A stretch of DNA of 64,000 nucleotides from Candidatus Poribacteria bacterium. Its GTDB lineage: Bacteria > Poribacteria > WGA-4E > PCPOR2b. This document shows positions 2,744 through 60,999 of the stretch, piece by piece; positions within the stretch are counted from its first letter, which is position 1; each line of letters opens with the position of its first letter. The stretch spans positions 5,061,088 through 5,125,087 of the forward strand of contig OZ241983.1 of assembly GCA_965204355.1 (NCBI GenBank), in the 5' to 3' direction. The translations under genes and the position numbers were made by a program. Under the pieces are notes generated by a model. The model ran no database searches and was not told where the DNA came from. It saw only the letters and a list, made by a program, of their open reading frames with translations.

Positions 2744-2811
2744 GTAGGAGGGATTTCCAAATCCCGACACGTCGCCCTAGGTCTGTAGGAGGGATTTCCA
2801 AATCCCGACAC
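2744..2811. repeat. two direct copies of the REP palindrome gtaggagggatttccaaatcccgacac
   Basis: The perfect palindrome ggatttccaaatcc occurs twice 41 bp apart. The same REP recurs near 9655 and 60070. Related forms occur in the RAYT-flanking arrays. Confidence 0.6.
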
Positions 2812-3257: not shown

Positions 3258-4364
3258 ATGACGAATTTATACCGTGTTGCTATTATCGGTACCGGTCGTA
3301 TGGGCGGCTTAATTGAAGATGAACTCTCGGTTAACCAATTTTCGAGCCCTTACGGTCATTTTAGCGCCTATGCTGCTATCGAGCAGACTGAGGTGGTAGC
3401 CGTTGCCAATCGTGGGGAGGACCGTCTGAAACGGTTCACCGATAGGTTCGGAATTACTAACACTTATCTCGATTATCGTGAGATGATTGAGCAGGAAAAG
3501 CCGGACATCGTGAGCGTGACTACGCCGTCATTCGCACGCGCTGAACCGATTATCTTTGCAGCAGAACACGGTGTGCGAGGAATATATTCAGAAAAGGGAC
3601 TGTGTGCCTCGCTGGCAGAAGCTGACCGCATCGCCGCTGCGTGTAAGGCTAACGGTGTTGCCTTCAATTGGGGCGCGATGCGCCGACACCATGACGGTTA
3701 TATTCGGATGCGTGATGCCATAACCCAAGGAGATATTGGTGAACCTCGCTACGCGGTGATGTCGAGTTATACCGACATAATCAAACATCACCCACACACC
3801 CTAGACCTCGTATCCATGTTGCTTGGCGATCCAATGCCAAGTTGGGTGGAGGGACGCCTTGTGCAGCGGGGAGAGCCGTTGGCTGCAAACGCAGATGAAC
3901 GCCCACGTGCATACCCGGAGTATGACTCGACTGGACACTGCTTTGTGCCACCCGCCGGAGAAGAAATTGCCGATCCCATGGTCGGATTTTTCCGGATCAG
4001 CTATGAGAACGATACAGAGGGAATTTTTCTGCCCATATCTGGACCATTTAACGTTGAGGTATACGGTACTGAAGGTCATGCCTACGCATGGGACAACGGC
4101 GACCTTTTCTGCGTCCGTAGCAGCGCAAAGGGCGGGGCAGCTGTTGATGAACAGGTTATTAAACCGACGGGCGAAAGTCCTACGGTGTGCACGATTCGCA
4201 ACATTATCCGAGAGATTGAAACGGGTGAGCGCACCACAGGCAATATCGATATAACGATGCAATCAGTAGAGGCGCAGTTTGGTATCGCACACTCGCACTT
4301 GCAAGGCGGTGCTCGTGTGTCATTACCCGTCGCGGATCGGACGCTTTACATCCCCGGTGGTTGA
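3258..4364 (+). CDS. Gfo/Idh/MocA family oxidoreductase
   Basis: Begins MTNLYRVAIIGTGRMGG (Rossmann fold). A strong AAAGGAGAG ribosome-binding site lies upstream. Confidence 0.8.
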   Translation: MTNLYRVAIIGTGRMGGLIEDELSVNQFSSPYGHFSAYAAIEQTEVVAVANRGEDRLKRFTDRFGITNTYLDYREMIEQEKPDIVSVTTPSFARAEPIIFAAEHGVRGIYSEKGLCASLAEADRIAAACKANGVAFNWGAMRRHHDGYIRMRDAITQGDIGEPRYAVMSSYTDIIKHHPHTLDLVSMLLGDPMPSWVEGRLVQRGEPLAANADERPRAYPEYDSTGHCFVPPAGEEIADPMVGFFRISYENDTEGIFLPISGPFNVEVYGTEGHAYAWDNGDLFCVRSSAKGGAAVDEQVIKPTGESPTVCTIRNIIREIETGERTTGNIDITMQSVEAQFGIAHSHLQGGARVSLPVADRTLYIPGG

Positions 4365-4367
4365 TAG

Positions 4368-4527
4368 TATAGTGGACCTTAGAATTAATGAGACACTCCA
4401 AATCGAACCGCATTACCCTCAGGCCCGGTAGGTGCGGTTTTTAACCGCACCGCATCGGCGCAGTTGGAAACAGCGCCTACCATACACGGGGAGCGAAAGC
4501 GCCTATCTGTTTTTAGAATTCACCATA
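4368..4527. repeat. MITE-like element, family A, in reverse orientation
   Basis: Runs from tatagtggaccttagaattaatgagacactcc to ttttagaattcaccata. It has the same internal modules as 2874-3034. Confidence 0.6.
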
Positions 4528-4652
4528 ATAGGACTGATGCAGCTGGAAGTTGGACAGGCACAAAACCTGCCCCTACAAAGGATTGACCCCCTGTAGGGGT
4601 AACCCTTGTGGTTGCCCTTGCTACTCAATTCACTACAAAGGAGACAGCACTT

Positions 4653-5186: not shown

Positions 5187-5332
5187 GGGTAAAAGGTTCA
5201 TTAGTTCATTGGTTCATTTAGCCTCAGCGAGATCAATTTGTAGGGAACGCAGATCTGCGTTCCGTTTCATCTGACCTTCGCCCTTCGGTTTCGATCCCGA
5301 TTTATCGGGGCGGCGTATGCCTACTACTTTAT

Positions 5333-5490: not shown

Positions 5491-8400
5491 ATGCTCAATC
5501 TCAAGCCAACACACAAAATCATCAGAGACTACTACGATGAGTTGGATCGGTTGGATCAGCTCGACACAACGCATGAGGGGGCCGTGCGATCGGCGTTCCA
5601 AGCTTTGCTCCAAGGTTGTGCACGACAGTTTAATTGGACCTTGGTGACTGAACATTCAATGTCCCCTCCCGATAAATCGGGATCCCGATGCCGTTCCGAG
5701 CATTCCGATCTATCGGAACCTGTCGGGACCGTGATAAAGGGGGCTAGGGGGGTTAAGAACAAGCGGATTGTCGTTGATGGCGCGTTGGTAGATAGCTTCC
5801 AACTGCCACACGGCTATTGGGAGGCGAAGGACATCCACGATAATCTACCCACTGAAGTCCAGCGCAAGTTTGAGGTGGGGTATCCCCGTGACAACATCCT
5901 CTTCCAAACCCCACACCGCGCCATCCTTTGGCAGCACAATCGGCAGGCGCTCGATGCCGACCTAACGGATCCGACGCAACTGATAGGGACCCTCGAAACC
6001 TTCTTTTCCCACCGGCCGCAGGAATACGCGGAATGGGAGGAGGCGGTGGCACAGTTCCGGGAACGGGTACCCGCACTTGGGAAGGGCCTGGCGGAACGCA
6101 TCCACGCTGAACGGGAGACAAATCGGGCGTTTATTGCTGCCTTTGCCGACTTCCATGAGAAGTGTTGTCAATCAATCAACCCGAACCTCTCCGAAGCTGC
6201 CGTTGAGGAAATGTTGATCCAGCACCTGTTGACCGAGCGGATCTTCCGAACCGTGTTTAGCAACTCCGATTTCATCCACCGCAATGTCATCGCCCGTGAA
6301 ATCGAAACCGTTATCAACGCGCTAACGTCTCACGCGTTCAGTCGCGAGGATTTTCTGCGTAGCCTTGATCCGTTCTATGTGGCGATCGAGCGTACCGCTG
6401 CCACCATTGATGACTTCTCCCAAAAACAGGGGTTTCTCAACACGGTTTACGAGCAGTTTTTTCAAGGCTTTTCCGTGGAGGTTGCGGACACGCACGGGAT
6501 CGTCTATACGCCGCAGCCGATTGTCGATTTTATGGTGAGAAGTGTTGAGGAGATCCTAAAGACCGAGTTCAGTCGATCGCTCTCCGATTCGGGTGTTCAT
6601 ATCATTGATCCGTTTGTGGGGACCGGCAATTTTATCGTGCGGCTGATGCGAGAAATTCGCAAGACCGCGCTGGGGCAAAAATACACGACCGAACTCCACT
6701 GCAACGAGGTGATGTTGCTGCCGTATTACATCGCGTCGATGAACATCGAACATGAATTTTACGAGGCGACGGGTAGATATCAACCGTTTGAGGGAATCTG
6801 TCTTGTGGATACCTTTGAACTGGCAGAAGACACCCACTACTATGAAGATTCGCTGTTTACAGAGGAGAACACCCGCCGCGTTGAAAAACAGAAGGAAACG
6901 CCGATGTTTGTGGTCATCGGTAATCCACCCTATAACGTCGGTCAGGTCAACGAGAACGACAACAATAAAAATCGGAAATATGAGAAAATGGATGCGCGGG
7001 TTGCGGAAACTTATGCAAAAGACTCCACAGCGACGCTCAAACGTAAACTCTACGACCCATACATAAAGGCGATCCGGTGGGCAGCGGACCGGATAGACGG
7101 GGAAGGGGTTGTTGCATTCATAACGAACAACAGCTTTCTCGCTGATATGACCTTTGACGGAATGCGGAAGCACCTCACAGACGATTTCGACGCGATTTAC
7201 ATTCTGGATCTGGGTGGGAATGCCCGGAAGGAATTGAAGGCCTCGGATGCCAATGTGTTCGGGATTCGGGTTGGTGTGAGCATCAACCTATTTGTAAAAA
7301 CCGGGCGAGCGATGAATCACCCGACTAGCCGTGGGAGGGACATCTCCCGTTCCGCCTGTCCCGATGCTGTCGGGGAGGATCCCGACAAGTCGGGACCTGC
7401 CCTGATGCGTATCTTTTACCATCGCACCGATGACCTGTGGAACAAGAAACAGAAAATCGATTTTCTGAATGAACGCGGACACATCGGCAATGTAGATTGG
7501 CAAACCATTCAACCTGACACACACCACACATGGCTCACCGAAGGACTCCACGCTGAATTTGAAACCTTTATTCCAATGGGAACTAAGGAAGTGAAGGCAG
7601 CAAAAAGTGAAGCGGTGGATGTGATTTTTCAGACTTATAGTCTCGGTATCAGCACCAACCGTGATGCGTGGGCGCGTAATTTCAACCAAAACACGCTGAC
7701 TAAAAAAATGAGTGGAATGATTGAAACTTACAACGCCGAGGTTGATAGGTGGCAACGTCGTGAGAACCGCGATGCGAATGTTGATGATTTTGTGATTTAT
7801 GATGATGAGAAAATCAAGTGGAGTTCGGGTTTAAAGCAGAAGCTAGAAAGCGGAGAAATCGCAGAATTTGCAGAATCAAAAATCCGACAATTCCTCTATC
7901 GTCCGTTTACGAGATCGAACCTCTACTTTGACCGAATGATAAACGATAGGGTGCTCCTGTTCCCATCCATCTTCCCTACACCTGAAACAGAAGCGGAAAA
8001 TCGGGTAATTTGCCTGACTGATAAAGGTTCTGAGAAACCCTTTATGATTCTTATGGGTCATCAATTAACTGATCTTCATGTTGTGGGTCCCGGTTGTGGT
8101 ACTCAATGCTTTCCCTTCTACACCTACGACGAGGCTGGGAGAAACCGCCGAGAAAACATCACCGATTGGGCGTTAGAGCAATTCCGAGCGCATTACGGAG
8201 ACGACACTATTGGCAGGTGGGACATCTTTCATTATGTCTACGGTCTACTCCACCATCCAACTTATCGCGAGCGGTATCAGGCAAACCTCAAACGGGATCT
8301 GCCACGTCTCCCTTATGCACCGGATTTCTGGGCGTTTGCCGAAGCGGGGAAACGGTTAGGGGAAATCCACGTCGGCTACGAGGATGTAGACGAATATCCG

Positions 8401-8739
8401 CTACGTTTCGTCGAGACACCGGATACACCCCTCGATTGGCGGGTGGAGAAGATGAAATTGTCTAAGGACAAGACGGGGATAAAATATAACAATTTCCTAA
8501 CACTCGACGGAATACCCGCGAAGGTGTTTGACTATCGGCTGGGGAATCGGTCTGCGTTGGAATGGGTGATAGATCAGTATCGCGTCAAGACGGACAAACG
8601 GAGCGGCATCGTCAACGACCCGAACCGCGAAGATGATCCGGAGTATATCGTCCGGTTGATTGGAAAGGTGATCGCGGTTAGTTTGGAGACGGTGGAGATT
8701 GTGGAGGGATTGCCCAATTTGGGAGTGCCTTCTCATTAA
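5491..8739 (+). CDS. single-polypeptide restriction-modification enzyme (Type IIG / ISP-like) with a PD-(D/E)xK nuclease, a gamma-class N6-adenine DNA methyltransferase and a C-terminal target-recognition region
   Basis: The N-terminal region carries a PD-(D/E)xK-like pattern (VVDGALVD-x9-EAK). Motif X is GIVYTPQPIVDFM, motif I is IIDPFVGTGNF and motif IV is GNPPYNV. A C-terminal region of about 450 aa follows. The ORF is intact despite two REP-derived in-frame segments. Confidence 0.6.
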   Translation: MLNLKPTHKIIRDYYDELDRLDQLDTTHEGAVRSAFQALLQGCARQFNWTLVTEHSMSPPDKSGSRCRSEHSDLSEPVGTVIKGARGVKNKRIVVDGALVDSFQLPHGYWEAKDIHDNLPTEVQRKFEVGYPRDNILFQTPHRAILWQHNRQALDADLTDPTQLIGTLETFFSHRPQEYAEWEEAVAQFRERVPALGKGLAERIHAERETNRAFIAAFADFHEKCCQSINPNLSEAAVEEMLIQHLLTERIFRTVFSNSDFIHRNVIAREIETVINALTSHAFSREDFLRSLDPFYVAIERTAATIDDFSQKQGFLNTVYEQFFQGFSVEVADTHGIVYTPQPIVDFMVRSVEEILKTEFSRSLSDSGVHIIDPFVGTGNFIVRLMREIRKTALGQKYTTELHCNEVMLLPYYIASMNIEHEFYEATGRYQPFEGICLVDTFELAEDTHYYEDSLFTEENTRRVEKQKETPMFVVIGNPPYNVGQVNENDNNKNRKYEKMDARVAETYAKDSTATLKRKLYDPYIKAIRWAADRIDGEGVVAFITNNSFLADMTFDGMRKHLTDDFDAIYILDLGGNARKELKASDANVFGIRVGVSINLFVKTGRAMNHPTSRGRDISRSACPDAVGEDPDKSGPALMRIFYHRTDDLWNKKQKIDFLNERGHIGNVDWQTIQPDTHHTWLTEGLHAEFETFIPMGTKEVKAAKSEAVDVIFQTYSLGISTNRDAWARNFNQNTLTKKMSGMIETYNAEVDRWQRRENRDANVDDFVIYDDEKIKWSSGLKQKLESGEIAEFAESKIRQFLYRPFTRSNLYFDRMINDRVLLFPSIFPTPETEAENRVICLTDKGSEKPFMILMGHQLTDLHVVGPGCGTQCFPFYTYDEAGRNRRENITDWALEQFRAHYGDDTIGRWDIFHYVYGLLHHPTYRERYQANLKRDLPRLPYAPDFWAFAEAGKRLGEIHVGYEDVDEYPLRFVETPDTPLDWRVEKMKLSKDKTGIKYNNFLTLDGIPAKVFDYRLGNRSALEWVIDQYRVKTDKRSGIVNDPNREDDPEYIVRLIGKVIAVSLETVEIVEGLPNLGVPSH

Positions 8740-8768: not shown

Positions 8769-8940
8769 TATAGTAGATTTTAGAATTACTTGGACACTGC
8801 CAATAGTCGAGGTGAGGAAACCTCGACTACCGGAGATGGAAAAATCTGGGCTATGACCCCGGTAGGTGCGGTTTCTCCCCGCACCGCATCAGCGCAGTTA
8901 CAAACAGCGCCTACCAAACACGGAGAGCGAAGGCACTCAT
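8769..8940. repeat. MITE-like element, family A, degenerate at one end
   Basis: Contains tatagtagattttagaattacttggacact ... ggtaggtgcggtttctccccgcaccgc ... cagcgcctaccaaacacggagagcgaagg. Confidence 0.5.
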
Positions 8941-9195
8941 CAAACCGGTGGGTGACACATCAATTGATTAAATACCTATCTCGACAGTCGTATGTATTCC
9001 GCTCCAGCGGAGCGATATGTCTATAGAATCGTGATAGGTCCAACGGCCGCGCTCCAGCGGAGCGCAATATGTATAGCAAGAGTTTCAGTTCGTAGTAGCG
9101 CATTTCTTAATCCCGATTTATCGGGGATTCATTGCGCGTTCGGACGGCGGATGAAGAAACGGGCGGCTACAATCTGAAGTGTGCAAGCCGCCCTG

Positions 9196-9366
9196 ATGTC
9201 ACAAAATGTCACAAAATGTCACAGATTTTGCATATTTTCGTTAGTCTTGGGGCGGACCGTTGATGAACATTAGCTTTGATTTTGATCAGATGTCACAGAA
9301 TGTCACAGATTCTCACAAATTCTCACATATTTTTTACCTGAGTGTGCGTTTTAGTGCGTTTTAGTG
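9196..9366. repeat. direct-repeat array: TGTCACA(aaa/gat) five times, TCTCACA(aat) twice, GTGCGTTTTAGT twice
   Basis: Three adjacent 10-bp units tgtcacaaaa/tgtcacaaaa/tgtcacagat start at 9197. A second block, atgtcacagaatgtcacagattctcacaaattctcacat, starts at 9289. The gtgcgttttagt unit repeats twice at 9343. Confidence 0.6.
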
Positions 9367-9584
9367 AGGTGGTTTGGACTTCTGAACCCTGATTTATGCC
9401 GTTCCCCCGATAAATCGGGACAAGCAGATTGTACTACTTATCAGGGGGACTTATGAGCCAGCTGCATAAGTCCTGGGATTGTCAGGTTATAGCTGATAGC
9501 TGTTTCTGCCATCCGTAATTATTATTTTAACATATCGGAATAACATATTGCAAAAAATTAATCATTCCGCCGGGGCTTTAGGGC

Positions 9585-9830
9585 TATTCAGTTTTAGGCT
9601 TTTTACGTATTTTGTTTGAAAAGTCGGAGTCGGGCAGTCGCTCTTAGAGCGACGTGTCGGGATTTGGAAATCCCTCCTACAGAAGAACTATGGTGAATTT
9701 TAGAATTACTTGAACGCTCTGTACCGGCGAGGATGGGAAAAGCCGGACTATCACCCCGGTAGGCGCAGTTACAAACAGCACCTACCAAACATGGGGAACG
9801 AAAGTGTCTATCTGTTTTTAGAATCCACTA
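9585..9830. repeat. composite repeat: a family B element followed by a family A MITE
   Basis: The first block is cagttttaggct ... tattttgtttgaaaagtcggagtcgggcagtcgctcttagagcgacgtgtcgggatttggaaatccctcctac. The second block is ctatggtgaattttagaattacttgaacgctctgtaccggcg ... agaatccactaatt. The same B+A pair recurs at 60003-60265. The repeat ends 3 bp before ATG 9834. Confidence 0.55.
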
Positions 9831-13108: not shown

Positions 13109-15175
13109 TTGGCAAAGGATCTATCCAACGTGAAAACAAATCAACGAATCAGAAACGTAGCCAATCACGCATCGCGTCCCGATATATCGGGATCCTCGGA
13201 ACGGGATTTCACGCATCACGTCCCGATATATCGGGATCCTCGGAACGGGATTTCACGCATCACGTTTCACGTCATATTTCTCATTCTGATACTTGTCGGC
13301 GGGGGCATTGGATGTTCAACCGACCGATCTCCCAAGTCCGGTCGTTGGGAAATTGTTCGGCGCGCAGATTGGGAAGCGAGATTCTACGATGTATTCTTCA
13401 TTGATGAGCGTACCGGATGGATAGTTGGAAATAACGCGGGAAGCACATTTGCTGAAGAACTTGACAGCGTCATCGCTCACACAACGGATGGCGGCGTGAC
13501 ATGGCAGCCACAACAGAGCGACGTCTACCATCCGTTACGAGCGGTGCGATTTGTGGACAGCCAAACCGGGTGGATCGTTGGCGAAAATGGTGTTATTCTA
13601 CACACAAAAAATGGCGGGGAGAAGTGGGAACGGCAATCAGCGGACACGTATGACAACCTGTTCGATCTTCATTTTGCTTCAGCCCAAGAAGGGTGGATCG
13701 TCGGCGATTTCGGGACGGTGTTACACACAACGGATGGCGGACAGACTTGGGCGAATCGATCGGAAGGAATCGGTGACAATTCACTGCGAGGCGTATTTTT
13801 CCTCAATTCCCGTCAAGGCTGGACGGTTAGCCATCAGGGCAACGCTTTTTATACACGCGATGGCGGAAAGCGTTGGACTTATCAGAAAACAAACGTCCGC
13901 TACGAGTTGTCCGATGTCCATTTTGTCGATGAAAATCGTGGTTGGATCATCGGCGACAAGCGCACGGTGCTTGCCACACAGGATGGCGGCAGGAATTGGG
14001 AGTATCTAACACGAGGCTCCAATAAACGTCACGAAGAGCACTACGGTCAGCAGATAAGAACTGGGGATGAACCACTACACACCTTCCTCCTGTACGCGCT
14101 CCACTTCACCGATACCGAGAATGGCTGGATCGTTGGCGACTTGGGGGCTATCTTGCACACCAACGATGGTGGGCGGACGTGGAAACATCAGCGGGGCGGT
14201 GCAACACAATTGGTCGGAGCGGATGTCGTTCTGCTGGGGGTCCATTTTGTCAATGCCCAGCTCGGTTGGACTGTCGGTGAGTTTGGGACGATCTGGCATA
14301 CTAAAAATGGCGGGCAAACGTGGGAACTTCAATCCGCACCCAGCTACCTGCTCACAGATCTCCACTTTATCAATGACAAGGTTGGATATGCGGTGGGTGA
14401 CCGTGGGGAGGTTCTTCGCACAGACGACGGCGGGTTACACTGGCAATCGCAGGATAGCGGAACGATGGAGTGTTTCGGATCAACCCATTTTATCAACGAC
14501 AAGGTCGGCTGGAGCGTTGCAGAATGGGGAACGATTGTCCACACCATTGACGGCGGCAAAACGTGGTCACAGCAAGAAGCGGATACGGAAAATGACCTCC
14601 TCGGCGTCTCCTTCGTTGACCCACAGCGAGGGTGGGCAATCGGTCACAGCGGGGAGATTTTGCACACCGCGGACGGCGGCAAAACGTGGGAGAAACAACG
14701 CAGCGGTGTCAATCGTCATCTCTTTGGAGTACATTTCATTGACCCTCAAAACGGATGGGTTGTAGGGCAGGGCGGTGTGATTCTTCACACCCGGAACGGC
14801 GGTCAAAAGTGGGATTTGCAAGCCGAACTCGGAGAAATCTGGCTATCAGGGGTCTATTTTACAGACTATCTAAACGGTTGGGTTGTCGGGATTGATGGCT
14901 TGGTGCTCCACACAACCGACGGCGGGCGCACGTGGAAACGTCAAAAAAGCTACGTGGAAAGTTTCCTGAATAGTGTCTTCTTCCTCAATGCAAACCTCGG
15001 TTGGGCGGTCGGCGGCGAAGGCACGGTTATCCGTACCCTCGATGGCGGTGAGAACTGGCGTCCGCAACGGTGCGAAAGCCACTATAACCTGAACTCGATC
15101 TATATGCAGGACGCTGAAACCGGTTGGATCGTCGGCGATCTCGGCGTGATGTTGCGGTATGTCATTGATGATTAG
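13109..15175 (+). CDS. BNR/Asp-box repeat beta-propeller protein (Ycf48-like or exo-alpha-sialidase-like repeats), probably a lipoprotein
   Basis: About 12 repeats of the (T/D)xDGGxTW Asp-box are present. A lipobox-like LILVGGGIGC follows a 50-aa N-terminal region that contains two 44-bp REP repeats, so the true start is uncertain. Confidence 0.6.
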   Translation: MAKDLSNVKTNQRIRNVANHASRPDISGSSERDFTHHVPIYRDPRNGISRITFHVIFLILILVGGGIGCSTDRSPKSGRWEIVRRADWEARFYDVFFIDERTGWIVGNNAGSTFAEELDSVIAHTTDGGVTWQPQQSDVYHPLRAVRFVDSQTGWIVGENGVILHTKNGGEKWERQSADTYDNLFDLHFASAQEGWIVGDFGTVLHTTDGGQTWANRSEGIGDNSLRGVFFLNSRQGWTVSHQGNAFYTRDGGKRWTYQKTNVRYELSDVHFVDENRGWIIGDKRTVLATQDGGRNWEYLTRGSNKRHEEHYGQQIRTGDEPLHTFLLYALHFTDTENGWIVGDLGAILHTNDGGRTWKHQRGGATQLVGADVVLLGVHFVNAQLGWTVGEFGTIWHTKNGGQTWELQSAPSYLLTDLHFINDKVGYAVGDRGEVLRTDDGGLHWQSQDSGTMECFGSTHFINDKVGWSVAEWGTIVHTIDGGKTWSQQEADTENDLLGVSFVDPQRGWAIGHSGEILHTADGGKTWEKQRSGVNRHLFGVHFIDPQNGWVVGQGGVILHTRNGGQKWDLQAELGEIWLSGVYFTDYLNGWVVGIDGLVLHTTDGGRTWKRQKSYVESFLNSVFFLNANLGWAVGGEGTVIRTLDGGENWRPQRCESHYNLNSIYMQDAETGWIVGDLGVMLRYVIDD
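13170..13257. repeat. 44-bp tandem repeat, two copies, inside the 5' coding region of the BNR protein
   Basis: Two adjacent units of catc(g/a)cgtcccgatatatcgggatcctcggaacgggatttcacg. The core palindrome cccgatatatcggg relates to the genome-wide cccgataaatcggg. Confidence 0.65.
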
Positions 15176-15444
15176 CCGACAACAGTAGGCACATCTTAAT
15201 CCAAGTTGCTAATCGTCAAGCCCACTCGGCTTGGATAGACATATCCAAGTCATCTGTGCATGTTTACAGTGGATTTGTCAGTCCACTGCGAACGGTGATT
15301 AAGAGCATTCTCCTGTAGGAGCGATTTCCAAATCGCGACACGTCGGGAATCGGAGTTCCCAGCTACCGGCGCAACATTGTATTCTGTAGAGCGATCCCCG
15401 AATCGCGACTGAATGCTTTGATAGTCGGGAATCGGAGTTCCCTC

Positions 15445-15918
15445 CTACCGCATGTCGAATTTGCATCGCCAATGTGGGTAATCTTCGGGATGTTTGACAA
15501 GCCCTTTTCTGACGGGGTTTTCGTAACAATAACGAATGATTTTGTTCAAGGATTCATCGCGGCGGATCCCGTGGTCATAGTAGTTAGCTTGCCAGATGGG
15601 ACTGTTCCCCAGCAGCCGCGCGTTGATTTGGTTGGCTGTGAACCTCTTGAAAGATTGGACGAGGCTAGATAAAGTTTGTTTGTTTCCGAGTTGGAAGACA
15701 ACGTGAATGTGGTCTGGCATCACCATGATGCACATCCATTTGAGACGTACCTCCTTTTCAAGCCAGTCGAAAGATTCATAAATAATATCTGGAATGCCGG
15801 AGTTCGTTAAGAGGGGTTCCCTGTTGTGGGTAGCGAGTGTGATGGAATAATATGCGCTAGGTATTGATTTTCTACCTTTCCGCAATTGGCGGTGTCCTTT
15901 ATTAGGGGTTCGGTTCAT
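15445..15918 (-). CDS. IS200/IS605-family Y1 transposase of the REP-associated (RAYT, TnpA_REP) type
   Basis: Contains the HUH motif PDHIHVVF and the C-terminal motif RYCYENPVRKGLV (Y ... NPV+xGLV). The protein is about 157 aa and is flanked by REP arrays. Confidence 0.75.
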   Translation of the reverse strand: MNRTPNKGHRQLRKGRKSIPSAYYSITLATHNREPLLTNSGIPDIIYESFDWLEKEVRLKWMCIMVMPDHIHVVFQLGNKQTLSSLVQSFKRFTANQINARLLGNSPIWQANYYDHGIRRDESLNKIIRYCYENPVRKGLVKHPEDYPHWRCKFDMR

Positions 15919-15967
15919 GTTTTGTTCTCTTGGCAAGATATTTTGTAACAGATTACAGCGTGATACT

Positions 15968-16456
15968 TAGTTGTGTATCAAGTCATTTTCACGTAGGAGC
16001 GATCTCCGAATCGCGACCCCTCGGGAATTAGAGTTCCCGGCTACCGGCGCAACATTGTATTCTGTAGAGCGATCCCCGAATCGCGACTGAATGCTTTGAT
16101 AGTCGGGAAGCGGAGTTCCCTCCTACAACATACTTAGTGTATCAAGTCATTTTCACGTAGGAGCGATCTCCGAATCGCGACCCCTCGGGAATCGGAGTTC
16201 CCGGCTACCGGCGCAACATTGTATTCTGTAGAGCGATCCCCGAATCGCGACTGAATGCTTTGATAGTCGGGAAGCGGAGTTCCCTCCTACAACATACTTA
16301 GTGTATCAAGTCATTTTCACGTAGGAGCGATCTCCGAATCGCGACCCCTCGGGAATTAGAGTTCCCGGCTACCGGCGCAACATTGTATTCTGTAGAGCGA
16401 TCCCCGAATCGCGACTGAATGCTTTGATAGTCGGGAAGCGGAGTTCCCTCCTACAA
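15968..16456. repeat. three tandem copies of a 164-bp unit; each unit carries three REP-like palindromes
   Basis: The unit is acttagtgtatcaagtcattttcacgtaggagcgatctccgaatcgcgacccctcgggaatYRgagttcccggctaccggcgcaacattgtattctgtagagcgatccccgaatcgcgactgaatgctttgatagtcgggaagcggagttccctcctacaacat. Unit starts are near 15968, 16132 and 16296. Confidence 0.7.
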
Positions 16457-16596
16457 CTCAAAAATGTCAAGTTAATTGTAAAATCCACCATAGTTCATTG
16501 GTTCACTAGTTCGTTAATGCATTCAATGAACCAATGAACCAATAAACTAGTGAACAATGTAGCAACAACACGTCATCAGCCAATGTCAAAAAGTTG

Positions 16597-17379
16597 CTAA
16601 ACAACCGCTGACAACCCTCCATCGATGTTGATCGCTGTCCCCGTTATATACGAAGCGCGATCCGAAACGAGGAAAGCAACGAGATCGCCGACCTCAGTCG
16701 GTTCACCCAAGCGACCAAGTGGATGCTCGGCCCCCCTTGCTTCCCAATACTCATCAATCGTACCGGGCGAGCCATCTGCCCTCCAAGACCGTTCACCCTG
16801 TGCGCTCTTGATTGAGGTTAAGCAGACGGTGTTGACAAGAATCTTGTCCGCAAGTAACTCTTTGGAGAGCGCTTTTGTCATCGCGATGCCTGCCGCTCGA
16901 CTGACGGAAGTTGGGACAGAACCTGCGTCCGGTTGTTTGCCACCGGGATGAGTGATATTGATAATGCGTCCACCGCCCGTTGGTCTCATGTGAGGGATAG
17001 CCAACCGCGAACAGCGCACCGCTCCCATCAGTTTGAGATCGAGGTCCTCGTACCATTCCGCATCGGTGACCTGTTCAAAATTTCCGCCCGCAGACTTCCC
17101 GGCGTTGTTGACCAGAATATCAATCTTGCCGTACGTATTAACCGTTTGGTTGATAAAGTTTTCGAGTGTTCCGGCGATTGTCACGTCAGCGGCGACCGCG
17201 AGCACCTCGCCACCCGTTGCATCGCGAATCTCCTGTGCCGCATCTTCTAAGACATCCTCACGGCGAGCGCAGATTGCGACTTTCGCGCCCTCTTCGCAAA
17301 GCCGTTGGGCAATTCCTTTGCCAATACCTTCACTACCGCCTGTGATGACGGCGACCTTTCCTGTCAATCCCAGATCCAT
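16597..17379 (-). CDS. SDR family NAD(P)-dependent oxidoreductase
   Basis: Contains GKVAVITGGSEGIGKGIA (TGxxxGxG), NNAG, and a catalytic Y/K region. Confidence 0.8.
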   Translation of the reverse strand: MDLGLTGKVAVITGGSEGIGKGIAQRLCEEGAKVAICARREDVLEDAAQEIRDATGGEVLAVAADVTIAGTLENFINQTVNTYGKIDILVNNAGKSAGGNFEQVTDAEWYEDLDLKLMGAVRCSRLAIPHMRPTGGGRIINITHPGGKQPDAGSVPTSVSRAAGIAMTKALSKELLADKILVNTVCLTSIKSAQGERSWRADGSPGTIDEYWEARGAEHPLGRLGEPTEVGDLVAFLVSDRASYITGTAINIDGGLSAVV

Positions 17380-17439: not shown

Positions 17440-17600
17440 TTCCCCGATGTATGTCAGTTTAGGACTTACGCAGCGCGTTCATAAGTCCCCCTGACAATGG
17501 TTTCCCCCCTGACAAGGGGGGCTAGGGGGGTTAGAGGATTTAGGGGGTTAAAAATCAAAAATCTACCCCCGTGTGCCAAATTTGCGTAAGTCCTGTCAGT
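17440..17600. repeat. family D repeat with gacttacgcag ... ctgcgtaagtc inverted ends and a poly-ggggg core
   Basis: The full sequence is aggacttacgcagcgcg ... agtccccctgacaa ... ggggggctaggggggttagaggatttagggggttaaaaatcaaaaatctacccccgtgtgccaaatttgcgtaagtcctg. Related copies occur at 20090-20165, 25803-26152 and 58305-58425. Confidence 0.5.
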
Positions 17601-20079: not shown

Positions 20080-20299
20080 GTCAACGTTCCTTATTTTTAG
20101 AACTTACGCAGCTAGCTTATAAGTCCCCCTGAACCCCTCTTATCTTCTCCCCTTGTCAGGTGCTTGCATCCCGATTTATCGGGGGGGAGTGGGGGATTTA
20201 GGAGGTTAGGGGATTTATGGTGAATTCTAAAAATAAATAAACACGTTCGCCCCCGGTTTGGCGTGTCTCATTAATTCTAATATCCACTATATTTAATCC

Positions 20300-23883: not shown

Positions 23884-24231
23884 ATGGACAAAGATACGCT
23901 GCAAATCTTAATTATGGTCGTTGGCTTTGCGATTACGATTATCACCTTTCTCTTGAAATTTCCGAGTCGAGATGAGATAAATCAGCGGTTTGATGATACG
24001 AATAAGCGACTTGATGATATGAATAGGCGATTCGATGATGTGAATCAGAGGATCACTGATATGAACCAACAGTTCAATGAAAGGATTGCCGATCTGAACC
24101 AACGGTTCGATGATATGAATAAACGGTTCGATGATATGAATCAAAGGCTCATTGATTTGAGTGCAGATGTGAGAAACATCTATCACATACTCATACAGGG
24201 AAAACTAGGAGAGTCAGAGAAAGACGATTAA
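23884..24231 (+). CDS. small membrane-anchored heptad-repeat protein (N-terminal transmembrane helix plus 8-9 copies of NxRFDDM)
   Basis: A GGGAGG ribosome-binding site lies 6 nt upstream of the ATG. The transmembrane helix is LQILIMVVGFAITIITFLL. Tandem 21-nt DNA repeats encode NQRFDDT/NKRLDDM/NRRFDDV ... NQRLIDL. Confidence 0.55.
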   Translation: MDKDTLQILIMVVGFAITIITFLLKFPSRDEINQRFDDTNKRLDDMNRRFDDVNQRITDMNQQFNERIADLNQRFDDMNKRFDDMNQRLIDLSADVRNIYHILIQGKLGESEKDD

Positions 24232-24638
24232 TCTCCCTCCGAATCACCAGTCGCTTCGTCACCTCACACGCTCCCACCGAGAAGTGGTAGAAGTAAACCC
24301 CACTTGTCATGCGCTAACCAGTATCATGCCAGTCCTCCCAAGAGATTGATTTGCGCAGAGAGAAACCGTAGAGGCGGGGCCGCCCGTAGGTGTCGAAAAC
24401 TCGGTTTCTATTACGTCATTTCTTTACTATCTTTAACGCAAGTTGCTAGTTAAATGTAGCGCAAACTGTTAGTTTGCGTCCTCGGATCACAATCTAACAG
24501 ATTGTGGTACAAAAGCCGCCTTTAGATGCTCCCTCCGCCTAGGGTGCCCTCAATCTATAAAGCTGATGAAACATAGAAACCATTGGGGAGAACCCTGATT
24601 CAGACAGCACCATAACTAGCAACTTAGGTTATCTTTAC

Positions 24639-24842
24639 TATAGTGAATTCTAAAAACAGATAGACACCTTCGCCCCTCGGTTTTGATCCCGATTTATCGG
24701 GGCTGGTAGGTGCGGTTTCTAACCACACCGCATTGCCCCCAGGTCCGGTAGGTGCGGTTTCCAACCGCACCGGTGCCGACTCGTCGAGCATCCTCGATAA
24801 ATCGGGATTTGGAGCGTCTCATTAATTCTAAGGTCCACTATA
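24639..24842. repeat. MITE-like element, family A, long form
   Basis: Contains tatagtgaattctaaaaacagatagacacc ... double ggtaggtgcggtttc(t/c)aacc(a/g)caccg hairpins ... gtctcattaattctaaggtccactata. Confidence 0.6.
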
Positions 24843-25802: not shown

Positions 25803-26152
25803 GTTTTTTGGATAGGACTTACGCAGCTAGCCGTAGGCGGGGCATCCCCGATAAATTGGGATTCAGAGCAACTTGCCCCGCCCTGAAATACACAAGTCCC
25901 CCTGATAAGGGGGATTTAGGGGGTTAAAAATCAAGGCTCATGTAAAAAGTAAAGTGCAAAACGCGAATCGAAATCGTAGGGGCGGGGTCTCCCCGCCCGC
26001 AGTCCGTAAGGGTTGGGTGACCCAACCCCTACGAAGATTCGGTTGCTGTTGCACGCCCCGATTCTCGGGATCCCGAGAATCGGGACTTTCTTAACATGAA
26101 CCAAAATCAAAAATCTACCCTCCGTGTGCTAAATTTGCGTAAGTCCTGTTGG
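25803..26152. repeat. nested composite repeat: a family C element inside a family D element
   Basis: The D ends are gacttacgcagctagc ... aaaaatcaaaaatctaccctccgtgtgctaaatttgcgtaagtcc. They enclose the C element gtgcaaaacgcgaatcgaaatcgtaggggcggggtctccccgcccgc ... cggttgctgttgcacg ... ttcttaacatgaacc. Confidence 0.5.
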
Positions 26153-28925: not shown

Positions 28926-29130
28926 CTTATAGCGAACACCAAAAACAGATAGACACTTTCATCCCCCGGTAGGTGCGGTTTCCAACCACACCGCATCGGC
29001 ACAGTTTGAAACAGTGCCTACCAAATCCCGACTAATCGGGATCCCGTGACTACGGGACGAGGAGAACGGTAGGGGCAGTTTCTTAACCACACCGGTTTGG
29101 AGTGTCTCATTCATTCCAAGATCTACCATA
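28925..29130. repeat. MITE-like element, family A, long form; near-identical to 30121-30319
   Basis: Shares the internal segment ctaccaaatcccgactaatcgggatcccgtgactacgggacgaggagaacggtagg with the copy on the other side of the phosphoesterase gene. Confidence 0.6.
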
Positions 29131-29131
29131 G

Positions 29132-30115: not shown

Positions 30116-30120
30116 AGACT

Positions 30121-30319
30121 TATGTGAATTCTAAAAACAGATAGACACTTTCGTCCCCCCGATAGGTTCGTATTCTCCCCGCACCACATCGGCACAGTTG
30201 GAAACAGTGCCTACCAAATCCCGACTAATCGGGATCCCGTGACTACGGGACGAGGAGAACGGTAGGTGCGGTTTCTAACCGCACCGGTTTGGAGTGTCTC
30301 ATTTCTAAGATCCACTATA
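30121..30319. repeat. MITE-like element, family A, long form; a direct copy of 28925-29130
   Basis: Same orientation and internal sequence as the upstream copy. Confidence 0.6.
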
Positions 30320-31817: not shown

Positions 31818-31859
31818 AACGTATCCGGTTCTTCAATGAACCGATGCACCAATGAACCA

Positions 31860-32534
31860 ATGAACTCTCTCAAAGTATCCGACATCTACAAAAACTTCGA
31901 TACTGAAACACAACAGGTTGAAGTGCTTCGTGGTATTTCGTTTGAAATGGCGCAAGGTGAATCCCTCGCTATCACCGGTCCCTCTGGATCCGGTAAAAGT
32001 ACGCTGCTGCACCTAATCGGTACACTGGATCGACCCTCGTCAGGACAGATTGAGATTAACGGTGAAGATCCGTTTGGACTCGCAGAGCCACAACTCGCCA
32101 GATTTCGGAATCAGGGGATCGGCTTTGTCTTTCAGGATCACCATCTGTTGCCACAGTATTCTGTCTGGGAAAACGTACTGATTCCCACCATGGCTTTCAA
32201 GAGCCGAGATGGGGATACCGAAACACGCGCACGGGAACTCCTCGAACGGGTTGGACTTGCCCACCGTTTGAGCCATCGACCAGCAGAGCTCTCCGGCGGC
32301 GAACGGCAACGCGTAGCCGTGGCGCGTGCCCTAATCAACTCACCCAGCCTCATCCTCTGCGACGAACCTACAGGCAACCTCGATCGCGCCATCGCAGATG
32401 GGGTGTCGTCCCTGTTGTTTGAACTACACCAAGCCGAACAGAACATTCTGATCGTAGTCACTCACAGCCTTGAACTCGCATCTCGCTTTGAACGACGTTT
32501 TGAATTGGAGGCGGGTAGATGCGCCGAAGTTTAA
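31860..32534 (+). CDS. ABC transporter ATP-binding protein (LolD/MacB-type)
   Basis: Walker [10 protein letters not shown], signature [15 protein letters not shown] and Walker [12 protein letters not shown]. The gene overlaps the downstream permease by 16 nt. Confidence 0.8.
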
Positions 32535-40100: not shown

Positions 40101-40265
40101 TTCTTTTTATAGTAGATCTTAGAATTAATGAGACACTCCAAACCGCACCGCGTTGCCCCAGGCTCGGTAGGTGCGGTTTCTAACCGCACCGAATAGGCGC
40201 AGTTGGAAACAGCGCCTACCAAACATGGGGAGCGAAAGCGTCTATCTGTTTTTAGGATTTACTAC
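40100..40265. repeat. MITE-like element, family A, long form
   Basis: Contains tatagtagatcttagaattaatgagacactcc ... ggtaggtgcggtttctaaccgcaccg ... gagcgaaagcgtctatctgtttttagg. Confidence 0.55.
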
Positions 40266-40342
40266 AATTTATTAGTATGACCATCCGTGTCATCTGCTTA
40301 ATCCGCGATTCAGACAATAATTATGAGCACCCCTCAAATACT

Positions 40343-51169: not shown

Positions 51170-51314
51170 TGGCGCATATAAAAAGAAAGTGCAAAATATG
51201 AAGCGAAATCGTAGGGGCGGGGTTTCCCCGCCCGCCGTAAGGGTTGGGAAACCCAACCCCCCTGGTCTCGGAACGGACTACGAAAACTCGGTTGCTGTTA
51301 CACGTTTTCTTAAC
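51170..51314. repeat. family C repeat ending in ttcttaacATGa; the ATG is the likely start codon of the downstream lipoprotein gene
   Basis: Sequence gtgcaaaatatgaagcgaaatcgtaggggcggggtttccccgcccgccgtaagggttgggaaacccaaccc ... cggttgctgttacacgttttcttaacatgag. Compare the copies at 25940-26110 and 31255-31340. Confidence 0.5.
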
Positions 51315-58307: not shown

Positions 58308-58425
58308 GTCCCCCTGACAAGAGGGATTTCAGAGAGTACGTGCCAAGTCCCCCTGACAAGGGGGATTTAGGGGGTTGGCTGTGCATTTGTAGTATCTAAA
58401 TAATCTTAAAATCTACCTTAATAGC
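58305..58425. repeat. partial family A/D repeat (ggggg core plus one terminus)
   Basis: Contains agtccccctgacaagagggatttcag ... agtccccctgacaagggggatttagggggttggctgtgcatttgtagtatctaaataatcttaaaatctacc. Confidence 0.45.
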
Positions 58426-60002: not shown

Positions 60003-60265
60003 AGGGCTATTCAGTTTTAGGCTTATGACCCATTTTGTTTGAAAAGTCAGAGTCGGGCAGTCGCTCTTAGAGCGAAGTGTCGGGATTTGGAAATCCCTCC
60101 CCGATAAATCGGGATGCAAGCACCTACAGAAAAACTATGGTGAACTTTAGAATGACTTGGACACGCTGTACCGGCGCAGTTAGAAATCCTGGTCACGATT
60201 TATCGGACAGCGCCTACCAAATACCGGGAGCGAAAGTGTCTACATATTTTGATAATTCACTATAA
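60003..60265. repeat. composite repeat: a family B element followed by a family A MITE (second copy of the 9585-9830 arrangement)
   Basis: The first block is ctattcagttttaggctt ... cattttgtttgaaaagtcagagtcgggcagtcgctcttagagcgaagtgtcgggatttggaaatccctcc. The second block is tatggtgaactttagaatgacttggacacgctgtaccggcg ... gagcgaaagtgtctacatattttgataattcactata. Confidence 0.55.
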
Positions 60266-60923: not shown

Positions 60924-60999
60924 GCGCCTGTAGCTCAGGGGATAGAGCAGGGGCTTCCTAAGCCTCGTGTCGGGGGTTCGAATCCTCCCAGGCGCACCA
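60924..60999 (+). tRNA. tRNA-Arg (anticodon CCT)
   Basis: A cloverleaf: acceptor GCGCCTG/CAGGCGC, D-loop AGCTCAGGGGATAGAGC, anticodon stem-loop GGGGC-TTCCTAA-GCCTC, T-arm GGGGGTTCGAATCCTCC, and an encoded CCA. My hand-counted coordinates may be off by 1. Confidence 0.85.

Follow-up and report, generated by a model that had tools for sequence, protein, structure and literature searches.

A probable REPtron in Candidatus Poribacteria: a RAYT gene among dispersed, strand-alternating REPs

Introduction

REP-associated tyrosine transposases (RAYTs, or TnpA_REP proteins) are known from several bacterial groups together with their cognate repetitive extragenic palindromes (REPs), an association called a REPtron. 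Here we describe a RAYT gene and its REPs in a stretch of 64,000 nucleotides, hereafter the window, from a Candidatus Poribacteria genome (contig OZ241983.1, positions 5,061,088 to 5,125,087; all coordinates below are those of the window). The TnpA_REP proteins of E. coli, S. maltophilia and Marinomonas bind REPs folded on single-stranded DNA in a GTAG-dependent manner; they also transfer strands, and their cleavage at CT (or CA) proceeds via a phosphotyrosine (PMC3333891, PMC3479197, PMC8266576). A survey of GTAG-type REPs and REPtrons covers Proteobacteria, Cyanobacteria, Chloroflexi and the Planctomycetes-Verrucomicrobia-Chlamydiae (PVC) superphylum but not Poribacteria (PMC3733652), and TnpA_REP proteins form subclasses with subclass-specific REP types (PMC6006769). 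In the literature that we searched we found no description of REPs or RAYTs in Poribacteria.

The features of the window locus are most similar to those of the group 3 REPtrons Mb of Marinomonas sp. MWYL1 and Sm of S. maltophilia (PMC8266576). As in these, the protein is short (about 150-157 aa), and the REPs are short perfect palindromes concentrated beside the gene. In Mb a 5-bp stem starts 2 nt after GTAG, which is exactly the window geometry of GTAG, GA, 5-bp stem, loop and stem, and the CT adjacent to the window REPs matches the CT/CA cleavage shown in vitro (PMC8266576). However, the loop has 6 nt in the window and 4 nt in Mb (PMC8266576), the host phylum is different, and the Tyr motif reads YCYENP instead of YI[VI]ANP (PMC6006769, Table 1).

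The best relative of the window RAYT in the structural database comes from the E. coli K-12 REPtron (TnpA_REP/YafM, PDB 4ER8; PMC3333891, PMC3479197). The bacterial interspersed mosaic elements (BIMEs) of E. coli share with the window a 5' GTAG guide, REP arrays, and two alternating REP types joined by fixed linkers (y/z there, a/b here), but E. coli REPs are 29-37 nt long, imperfect, and need a bulge for binding, whereas the window stems are 5 bp and perfect (PMC3333891, PMC3479197). The REP doublets (REPINs) and RAYTs of Pseudomonas fluorescens also provide a close parallel, with a RAYT that is, as the window gene probably is, single-copy and vertically inherited, an inverted REP doublet as the dispersed unit, several RAYT-REP pairs per lineage, and co-divergence of RAYT and REP (PMC3116915, PMC5581495). 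The two arms of a Pseudomonas REPIN are the same REP inverted, whereas the poribacterial arms are consistently different stem variants (PMC3116915, PMC5581495), so that the poribacterial doublet pairs imperfectly with itself; in this respect E. coli BIMEs, with their y/z pairs, are the closer parallel. The GTAG REPs of the PVC superphylum, Cyanobacteria and Chloroflexi resemble those described here in that several families coexist in a genome, REPtrons are specific to their repeats, and unrelated inverted repeats take part in composite structures (PMC3733652). With the IS200/IS605 elements (IS608, ISDra2) the window RAYT appears to share an HUH-Y1 core, subterminal hairpins, a guide tetranucleotide and presumably single-strand chemistry; unlike them, it scores below the IS200 cutoff and shows no sign of self-mobility, nor was a tnpB or a second gene copy found in the sequence covered.

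We conclude that the locus is very probably a REPtron, in which an apparently single-copy and probably vertically kept RAYT gene is embedded in cognate REPs. As far as they can be read from sequence, the defining features of RAYTs and REPtrons appear to be present, and those of IS200 elements absent. A first-pass annotation of the window, made without database searches, had proposed such a REPtron-like arrangement in a repeat-rich genome, and this proposal is now supported by the family model, by the dispersal of the REPs and their orientation pairs, and by a TA duplication at the edge of a miniature inverted-repeat transposable element (MITE). The finding leaves the current picture of RAYTs and REPs unchanged, and extends REPtrons to a phylum not covered by the searched literature.

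The RAYT gene and its protein

The RAYT gene is located on the reverse strand at 15445..15918 and encodes 157 aa from an ATG start codon to a TAG stop at 15445-15447; an alternative TTG start at 15936 would yield a 163-aa product. The protein scores 126.1 bits with the NCBIfam equivalog NF047646 (REP_Tyr_transpos; cutoff 80), covering profile positions 1-146 of 146, and 38.1 bits with the IS200 model NF033573, below its cutoff of 55. It matches Pfam Y1_Tnp with 47.5 bits, and its top PDB match is 4ER8 (E. coli TnpArep), with 33 bits in a local alignment of residues 62-149 that pairs HMH and YIYINPVKHG of 4ER8 with HIH (residues 70-72) and YCYENPVRKG (130-139). The 157-aa HUH/Y1 transposase of the first-pass annotation was thus confirmed, with HIHVVF at residues 70-75 and the Tyr motif YCYENPVRKGLV at 130-141, and the protein does align with the TnpA_REP family, represented by NF047646 and 4ER8, with both motifs in register.

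Both motifs are invariant or nearly so among 20 homologs of 52-97% identity. The residues H70, H72, Y130, Y132 and N134, set in the contexts P-D-H70-I-H72 and Y130-C-Y132-E-N134-P, are invariant in the alignment. Compared with a 79%-identical homolog (locus L125) the gene has a dN/dS of about 0.1; it is intact and under purifying selection. All homologs come from Candidatus Poribacteria (sponge symbionts and relatives). An exact-sequence look-up returned no match for the RAYT or for the 368-aa neighbour at 3258-4364, and matched the SDR and AP-endonuclease neighbours.

The RAYT is flanked by an SDR gene and a BNR-repeat gene. This gene order is shared by two closed genomes of about 6 Mb, L001 and L002, at 93-99% nucleotide identity, and the position of the RAYT is syntenic in three close strains. 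We found no second RAYT copy within the 64-kb window, no RAYT in the 953 kb of REP-bearing loci described below (at least 120 listed stretches), and no tnpB partner. These results bear on the possibility that the RAYT, together with the hairpins beside it, is an autonomous insertion sequence of the IS200/IS605 type that moves as a unit, with REPs as its ends and decayed copies. Such an element would have a Y1_Tnp domain and hairpins on both sides of the gene, as seen here, and would account for homologous genes lying in differing genomic contexts between species. Nevertheless, we regard it as extremely unlikely: the IS200 equivalog score is below cutoff while the RAYT score is far above, three strains share the syntenic position of the gene, there is neither a tnpB nor, among the matches listed, a second copy in the window or in the 953 kb, and the REPs far outnumber the gene, occurring as singlets of 25 nt or doublets of 64 nt that contain no coding remnants.

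Between the start codon and the upstream REP array lies a unique leader (15919..15972, reverse strand), which is also kept in L001 and L002. A promoter scan of 15100-16700 found no convincing sigma-70 site in this leader, and promoter and terminator predictions over the same interval were at chance level. Four RAYT homologs (P0011, P0076, P0086 and P0106) have N- or C-terminal extensions that resemble translated flanking REPs (e.g. ...RDLEIAPTG...); these extensions are probably gene-calling artefacts, because REPs abut the open reading frame (ORF).

REPs and REP arrays beside the gene

Each REP, of 24-25 nt in total, has GTAG and one or two bases, followed by the two arms of a 5-bp stem around a 6-nt loop and then by GAC; the first REP of the 3'-side cluster is an exception, its stem reading as 7 bp and its loop as 2 nt. 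Two stem variants, REP-a (GCGAT/ATCGC) and REP-b (GGGAA/TTCCC), occupy opposite strands in alternating orientation. They are identical at 21 of 25 bases and differ in two compensatory stem pairs. The RAYT is flanked by 4 REPs on its 3' side and 12 on its 5' side, with forward and reverse orientations alternating throughout.

The 3'-side cluster (15311..15448) is a single four-REP module of 138 bp, in the order +, -, +, -, which is identical to the core of the upstream array unit at 128 of 138 positions. A 138-bp REP cluster on one side of the gene had been predicted, and it is there, with four GTAG hairpins: REP-a GTAGGAGCGATTTCCAAATCGCGAC at 15315..15339 (forward), directly preceded by CT; a REP-b variant GTAGCTGGGAACTCCGATTCCCGAC at 15342..15366 (reverse); REP-a' GTAGAGCGATCCCCGAATCGCGAC at 15386..15409 (forward); and REP-b GTAGGAGGGAACTCCGATTCCCGAC at 15424..15448 (reverse). 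The last two form an a/b tail-to-tail doublet separated by the 14-nt spacer TGAATGCTTTGATA. The GTAG of the final REP-b includes the end of the gene, the RAYT stop codon TAG (15445-15447) being the last three bases of this GTAG, and the same overlap between stop codon and REP is found at three further loci (L001, L002 and L125).

On the other side of the gene, Tandem Repeats Finder (TRF) reports an array at 15973-16457 with a period of 164, 3.0 copies and 98% matches. The 164-bp unit is the four-REP module plus a 26-nt spacer, and three units span 15973-16464. Unit 1 (15973..16136) carries REPs at 15993-16017 (forward), 16019-16044 (reverse), 16064-16087 (forward) and 16102-16126 (reverse). 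Unit 2 (16137..16300) differs from it by two substitutions, both in the loop of the second REP, and unit 3 (16301..16464) is the same as unit 1 up to the last 7 nt. The three tandem 164-bp units that had been annotated as perfect are therefore real in number and period, but near-perfect in sequence. Rfam contains no family for the window repeats; its sole match in the window is a tRNA.

Just past the array is an inverted repeat of the motif GTTCATTGGTTCA / CAATGAAC, which recurs at 16493-16560, 5204-5216 and 31834-31865 and is adjoined by a solo MITE terminus at 16455-16492.

REP dispersal across Poribacteria genomes

One genome per species was scanned for the REP sequence GTAGGAGSGATYTCCRAATCSCGAC. 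Matches were found in at least 120 DNA stretches from at least 56 species genomes; among the matches listed, to which the counts in this section refer, all are from named Poribacteria save two metagenome-assembled genomes (MAGs) labelled 'uncultured bacterium'. The expected enrichment of the REP outside the window is thus borne out at the level of the phylum.

The variable stem pair is complementary in 139 of 140 exact matches, being C..G in 105 and G..C in 34. Judged from the sequences, these compensatory stem changes show selection for pairing. REPs of this class are grouped as 95 singlets, 48 doublets, 5 triplets and 1 quadruplet, and the spacing of inverted doublets has modes at 14 nt (tail-to-tail) and 16 nt (head-to-head). 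The 41 close inverted doublets listed comprise 39 a/b pairs, one pair of a (GCGAT) with a GTGAA stem, and a single a/a pair; the two arms are hence different stem variants in 40 of 41 cases, a and b differing at 4 of 25 positions. The consensus of the tail-to-tail spacer, approximately TGAAYGCYTTGATA, matches the window spacers at 15410-15423 and 16088-16101, and the same a/b doublet with its spacer consensus is dispersed in other species. BIME-like orientation pairs, which the first-pass annotation had named as a point to check, are accordingly present as inverted a/b doublets with fixed spacings of 14 and 16 nt.

CT directly precedes GTAG in 105 of 210 REP copies (50%), compared with a background of 5%. 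A CT beside GTAG fits the C^T cleavage site of TnpA_REP (PMC3479197, PMC8266576).

Cognate REPs and unstable arrays at other RAYT loci

Seven further RAYT loci were compared (L125, L126, L127, L128, L133, L134 and L135). Across nine loci, as RAYT identity drops from 98% to 55%, the REPs shift from identical to a different class. The loci of the window, L001 and L002 carry REP-a/b, and the same a/b REPs occur in unrelated gene neighbourhoods at L125 (79% RAYT identity) and L126 (72%); the RAYTs of L001, L002, L125 and L126 are flanked, like that of the window, by GTAG REPs in both orientations. More distant RAYTs are accompanied by other REPs: GTAGGAGCGAGCTGYGCTCGCGAT at L135 (66%), GTAGGAGCGACCTCCTGGTCGCGAC at L127 (62%), GTAGGAGGGCTTTGTAAGCCCGAT and relatives at L133 (57%), GTAGCCGGGGCATCTTGCCCCG at L134 (57%) and GGGAGGGGTTTACAACCCCGATA at L128 (55%). 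The REP class therefore tracks the RAYT lineage, as in REPtrons and REPIN-RAYT systems (PMC3733652, PMC5581495, PMC8266576).

The arrays beside these genes differ greatly. Upstream of the RAYT there are 3 units of 164 bp in the window, 4 units of about 162 bp in L002, and 4 units of 35 bp in L001. In L001 each 35-bp unit joins REP-b to six bases from the 3' end of the RAYT, which implies that the L001 upstream array was derived from the downstream junction; the downstream array of L001 (3 x 92 bp) duplicates the last ~55 nt of the ORF together with REP-b. Upstream and downstream arrays measure 6 x 43 bp and 6 x 32 bp, respectively, at L133, and at least 5 x 42 bp and 4 x 21 bp at L135, while L128 has 4 x 35 bp downstream. 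Array copy number and structure vary between strains that are 93-99% identical, and tandem REP arrays beside RAYTs are a recurrent, unstable feature. We considered an assembly artefact and rejected it: array copy numbers differ across independent long-read assemblies, and short-read contigs break inside the array, L003 and L004 both ending within an array of the window type. The contig L129, which reproduces a different part of the window at 99.99% identity, also counts against an artefact.

The REPs could instead be structural or regulatory hairpins selected by the host (stabilisers, terminators or protein-binding sites), their arrays arising only from slippage and unequal recombination and the RAYT being irrelevant to their spread. 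That they are strictly intergenic, show compensatory stem changes indicating selection for pairing, have array junctions inside stems, and conserve the exact 25-mer in at least 56 species would all be expected of such hairpins. However, they lack T-tracts, terminator-like sites are not in excess, the REP class tracks the RAYT subfamily over nine loci, the conserved GTAG and adjacent CT fit the known recognition and cleavage rules of the enzyme (PMC3479197), and the RAYT is under purifying selection. We thus find it very unlikely that host selection explains the REPs by itself; a host function and RAYT-driven REP spread are compatible and not mutually exclusive.

REPs and MITEs across the window

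In the window the 25-mer REP has 7 matches with up to 3 mismatches (0.00 expected). GTAG followed within 3 nt by a perfect hairpin stem of at least 5, 6 or 7 occurs 43, 23 and 18 times respectively, as compared with 7.3, 1.4 and 0.5 in dinucleotide-preserving shuffles. GTAG hairpins are thus 6-36 times above expectation, and GTAG is the tetranucleotide that most often precedes hairpins in the window. Of the 12244 intergenic bases, 3906 (32%) belong to within-window repeats, as do 451 (0.9%) of the 51756 coding bases. Among the 33 intergenic regions that are 100 bp or longer, 19 contain such repeats, and the stretch from 44.9 to 57.5 kb is free of them.

These numbers partly revise the first-pass annotation, which had described a genome saturated with modular REP/MITE repeats, with more than 25 copies in 64 kb occupying nearly every intergenic region. 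The genome is indeed repeat-rich, but 'nearly every' was an overstatement, the repeats reaching 19 of 33 regions and the palindrome of the RAYT locus only three outside that locus. The figure of more than 25 copies stands for GTAG hairpins overall but not for the cited palindrome, which beyond the RAYT locus is found at four sites only (2744, 2785, 9656 and 60079-60127). The other modular repeat families are mostly bona fide MITEs of two other types, not attributable to the RAYT.

The four dispersed copies of the RAYT's own REP always have a GGGAT stem variant and sit in one composite repeat of about 270 bp that abuts a MITE end. Two are in tandem on the forward strand (2744..2809, as 2744-2768 and 2785-2809); the others are on the reverse strand, at 9656..9680, a site that is also occupied in L001, and at 60079..60127, where a 24-nt hairpin insert (60101-60124) interrupts the CTAC between its C and T. 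The window also contains at least three other GTAG-REP families. A doublet of the second family, GTAGGTGCGGTTTTTAACCGCACCG / GTAGGCGCTGTTTCCAACTGCGC, lies within a TA-MITE at 4428..4488, with further copies at 2948, 8862, 24748, 30262 and 40167, and the third and fourth families, GTAGGGGCGGGGTCTCCCCGCCCG (forward) and GTAGGGGTTGGGTCACCCAACCC (reverse), are found together at 25976..26032, with further copies at 51211, 58458 and 12569. No cognate RAYT for these other families, e.g. GTAGGTGCGGTTTCTAACCGCACCG, was matched among the seven further RAYT loci.

The remaining window repeats are mostly true MITEs of two types, one with a TA duplication and one with a 7-bp duplication, that carry other GTAG REPs as cargo. 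They are probably moved by enzymes other than the RAYT. The TA-MITE family has the termini TGGTGAAYTYTARAA and an estimated 15 or so relatives in the window (e.g. 4366-4529, 40106-40270, 24637-24842, 28926-29131, 30116-30319 and 60134-60264), many with internal GTAG-REP doublets. A 189-bp MITE with termini TGGTGAAYT... that carries REP doublets is present in L130 (3114-3302), while the window has the empty site at 58397/58398; the TA target duplication that had been anticipated at MITE edges is found there. TA duplication is a hallmark of IS630/Tc1-type elements; no transposase for the TA-MITEs was identified here. The second type has the termini AGGACTTACGC. A 134-bp copy at 17461-17594, missing from L001, is flanked by a 7-bp duplication, GTCAGTT, and a 335-bp relative at 25813-26147 holds two GTAG REPs as cargo.

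One TA-MITE 'shell' of 78 bp (20214-20291) differs between strains in its REP content. At the point CCAAAC^CGGGGGC there are no REPs in the window and L003, one in L004, and three together with other modules in L002 (~7020-7150). The REPs gained or lost belong to the GTAGGTGCGG family, in strains 96-99% identical. This is direct evidence of recent gain or loss at the REP level, in a family other than a/b.

These observations raise the possibility that GTAG REPs spread mainly as passengers in MITEs moved by DDE transposases, the RAYT doing little more than seeding them. The insertion of the 189-bp MITE with its REP doublets and TA duplication in L130, a MITE shell that holds 0, 1 or 3 REPs depending on the strain, and the fact that the window REP-a copies all abut MITE ends in one composite repeat are consistent with this idea. 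Yet a/b REPs of other species are mostly bare singlets or doublets that have a conserved spacer of their own, MITE transposition cannot produce the changes in cargo number, which are REP-level events, and no MITE transposase was identified. We therefore consider it distinctly unlikely that MITEs are the main vehicle.

Small hairpins form a further layer of inserts. The 24-nt hairpin CCGATAAATCGGGATGCAAGCACC is present at 20159-20182 (reverse), where L002 and L004 have an empty site, and at 60101-60124 (forward), where it splits the REP inside CTAC; both insertion points are C^T. The exact 24-nt hairpin has two sites only in about 1 Mb, and with just two sites no target rule can be drawn. In L132 (~4050-4070) a further 20-nt hairpin is nested in its loop, and related hairpins, of the CCCGATnnATCGGG type, number about 17 in the window.

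A non-coding block at 8935-9580 contains iteron-like 10-bp repeats (ATGTCACAAA x2.8 at 9196-9223, with more nearby) and has a TA-MITE copy on each side. It is present in L001 and missing in L002, where a single MITE remains, and its loss in L002 looks like a deletion by MITE-MITE recombination.

Proposed mechanism

Several observations weigh against the REPtron reading. RAYT loci of different species are not syntenic, which implies some gene movement or paralogy. Whole 164-nt units folded as single-stranded DNA have z-scores of -2.0 and -0.3, barely beyond shuffles; given these weak z-scores, the case for REP hairpins rests on covariation and not on energy. In L001 and L135 the junctions of the arrays fall within REP stems and not at C^T, which suggests slippage or template switching at hairpins besides or instead of enzymatic joining. 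For REP-a/b away from the RAYT gene we found no clean single gain or loss among the strains compared, and REP gains and losses were seen only for a non-a/b family inside a MITE. Finally, the four dispersed REPs of the window may have spread as passengers, since all of them sit in one larger composite repeat.

We nevertheless favour the REPtron reading, and propose the following scheme for the observed association, dispersal, co-variation, array instability, and selection on pairing and on the protein; its chemistry is borrowed from the E. coli, S. maltophilia and Marinomonas enzymes. The RAYT would recognise the REP, folded on single-stranded DNA, by its hairpin and its 5' GTAG, cut at a nearby C^T via a 5'-phosphotyrosine on the Y130/Y132 motif, and then rejoin the strands. 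Cutting and rejoining might copy REPs or a/b doublets to new sites and build local arrays. After a first duplication, arrays probably also grow and shrink through unequal recombination or through slippage of replication at the hairpins. Cleavage and strand transfer by TnpA_REP have been obtained in vitro, and we know of no full transposition cycle.

A bolder version of this scheme is that REPs are moving now: the arrays beside the RAYT would be nurseries, from which REPs land preferentially in the centres of TA- and 7-bp-MITEs, such that the HUH-Y1 RAYT and DDE-type mobilisers cooperate on composite elements. This version is speculative, and we think it unlikely. The 24-nt hairpin found at C^T (60101-60124 and 20159-20182) might be the smallest unit moved by the enzyme. 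If REPs are indeed moving now, their insertion sites and rates could be read from natural populations, in which many closed and near-identical Poribacteria genomes exist. The lineage offers short and simple REPs, several RAYT-REP pairs, arrays beside the genes that vary between strains of 97-99% identity, and dozens of closed genomes from long-read metagenomes, which make it a natural data set that can be used to read how REPs are gained and lost and which sites they target.

Other features of the window

A 688-aa ORF at 13109-15175 is made of BNR/Ycf48-like repeats of about 41 aa, with a 123-bp period. Its first ~150 nt contain a 44-bp tandem repeat (13165-13265) with CCCGATATATCGGG hairpins, and the real start is therefore probably downstream; for the counterparts of this ORF, gene callers give 650 aa in L001 and 681 aa in L002. 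The 1082-aa Type ISP restriction-modification gene at 5491-8739 is 77-93% identical to its counterparts in L001 and L002, compared with 95-99% for its neighbours, which makes it an apparent local hot spot of divergence. A tRNA-Arg (CCT) at 60924-60999 is the sole Rfam or ARAGORN match in the window. A 134-aa ORF contains in-frame 21-bp (7-aa) tandem repeats at 23954-24181, with a heptad-like MNxRFDD pattern, and near this ORF L001 has an additional HNH/TPR gene.

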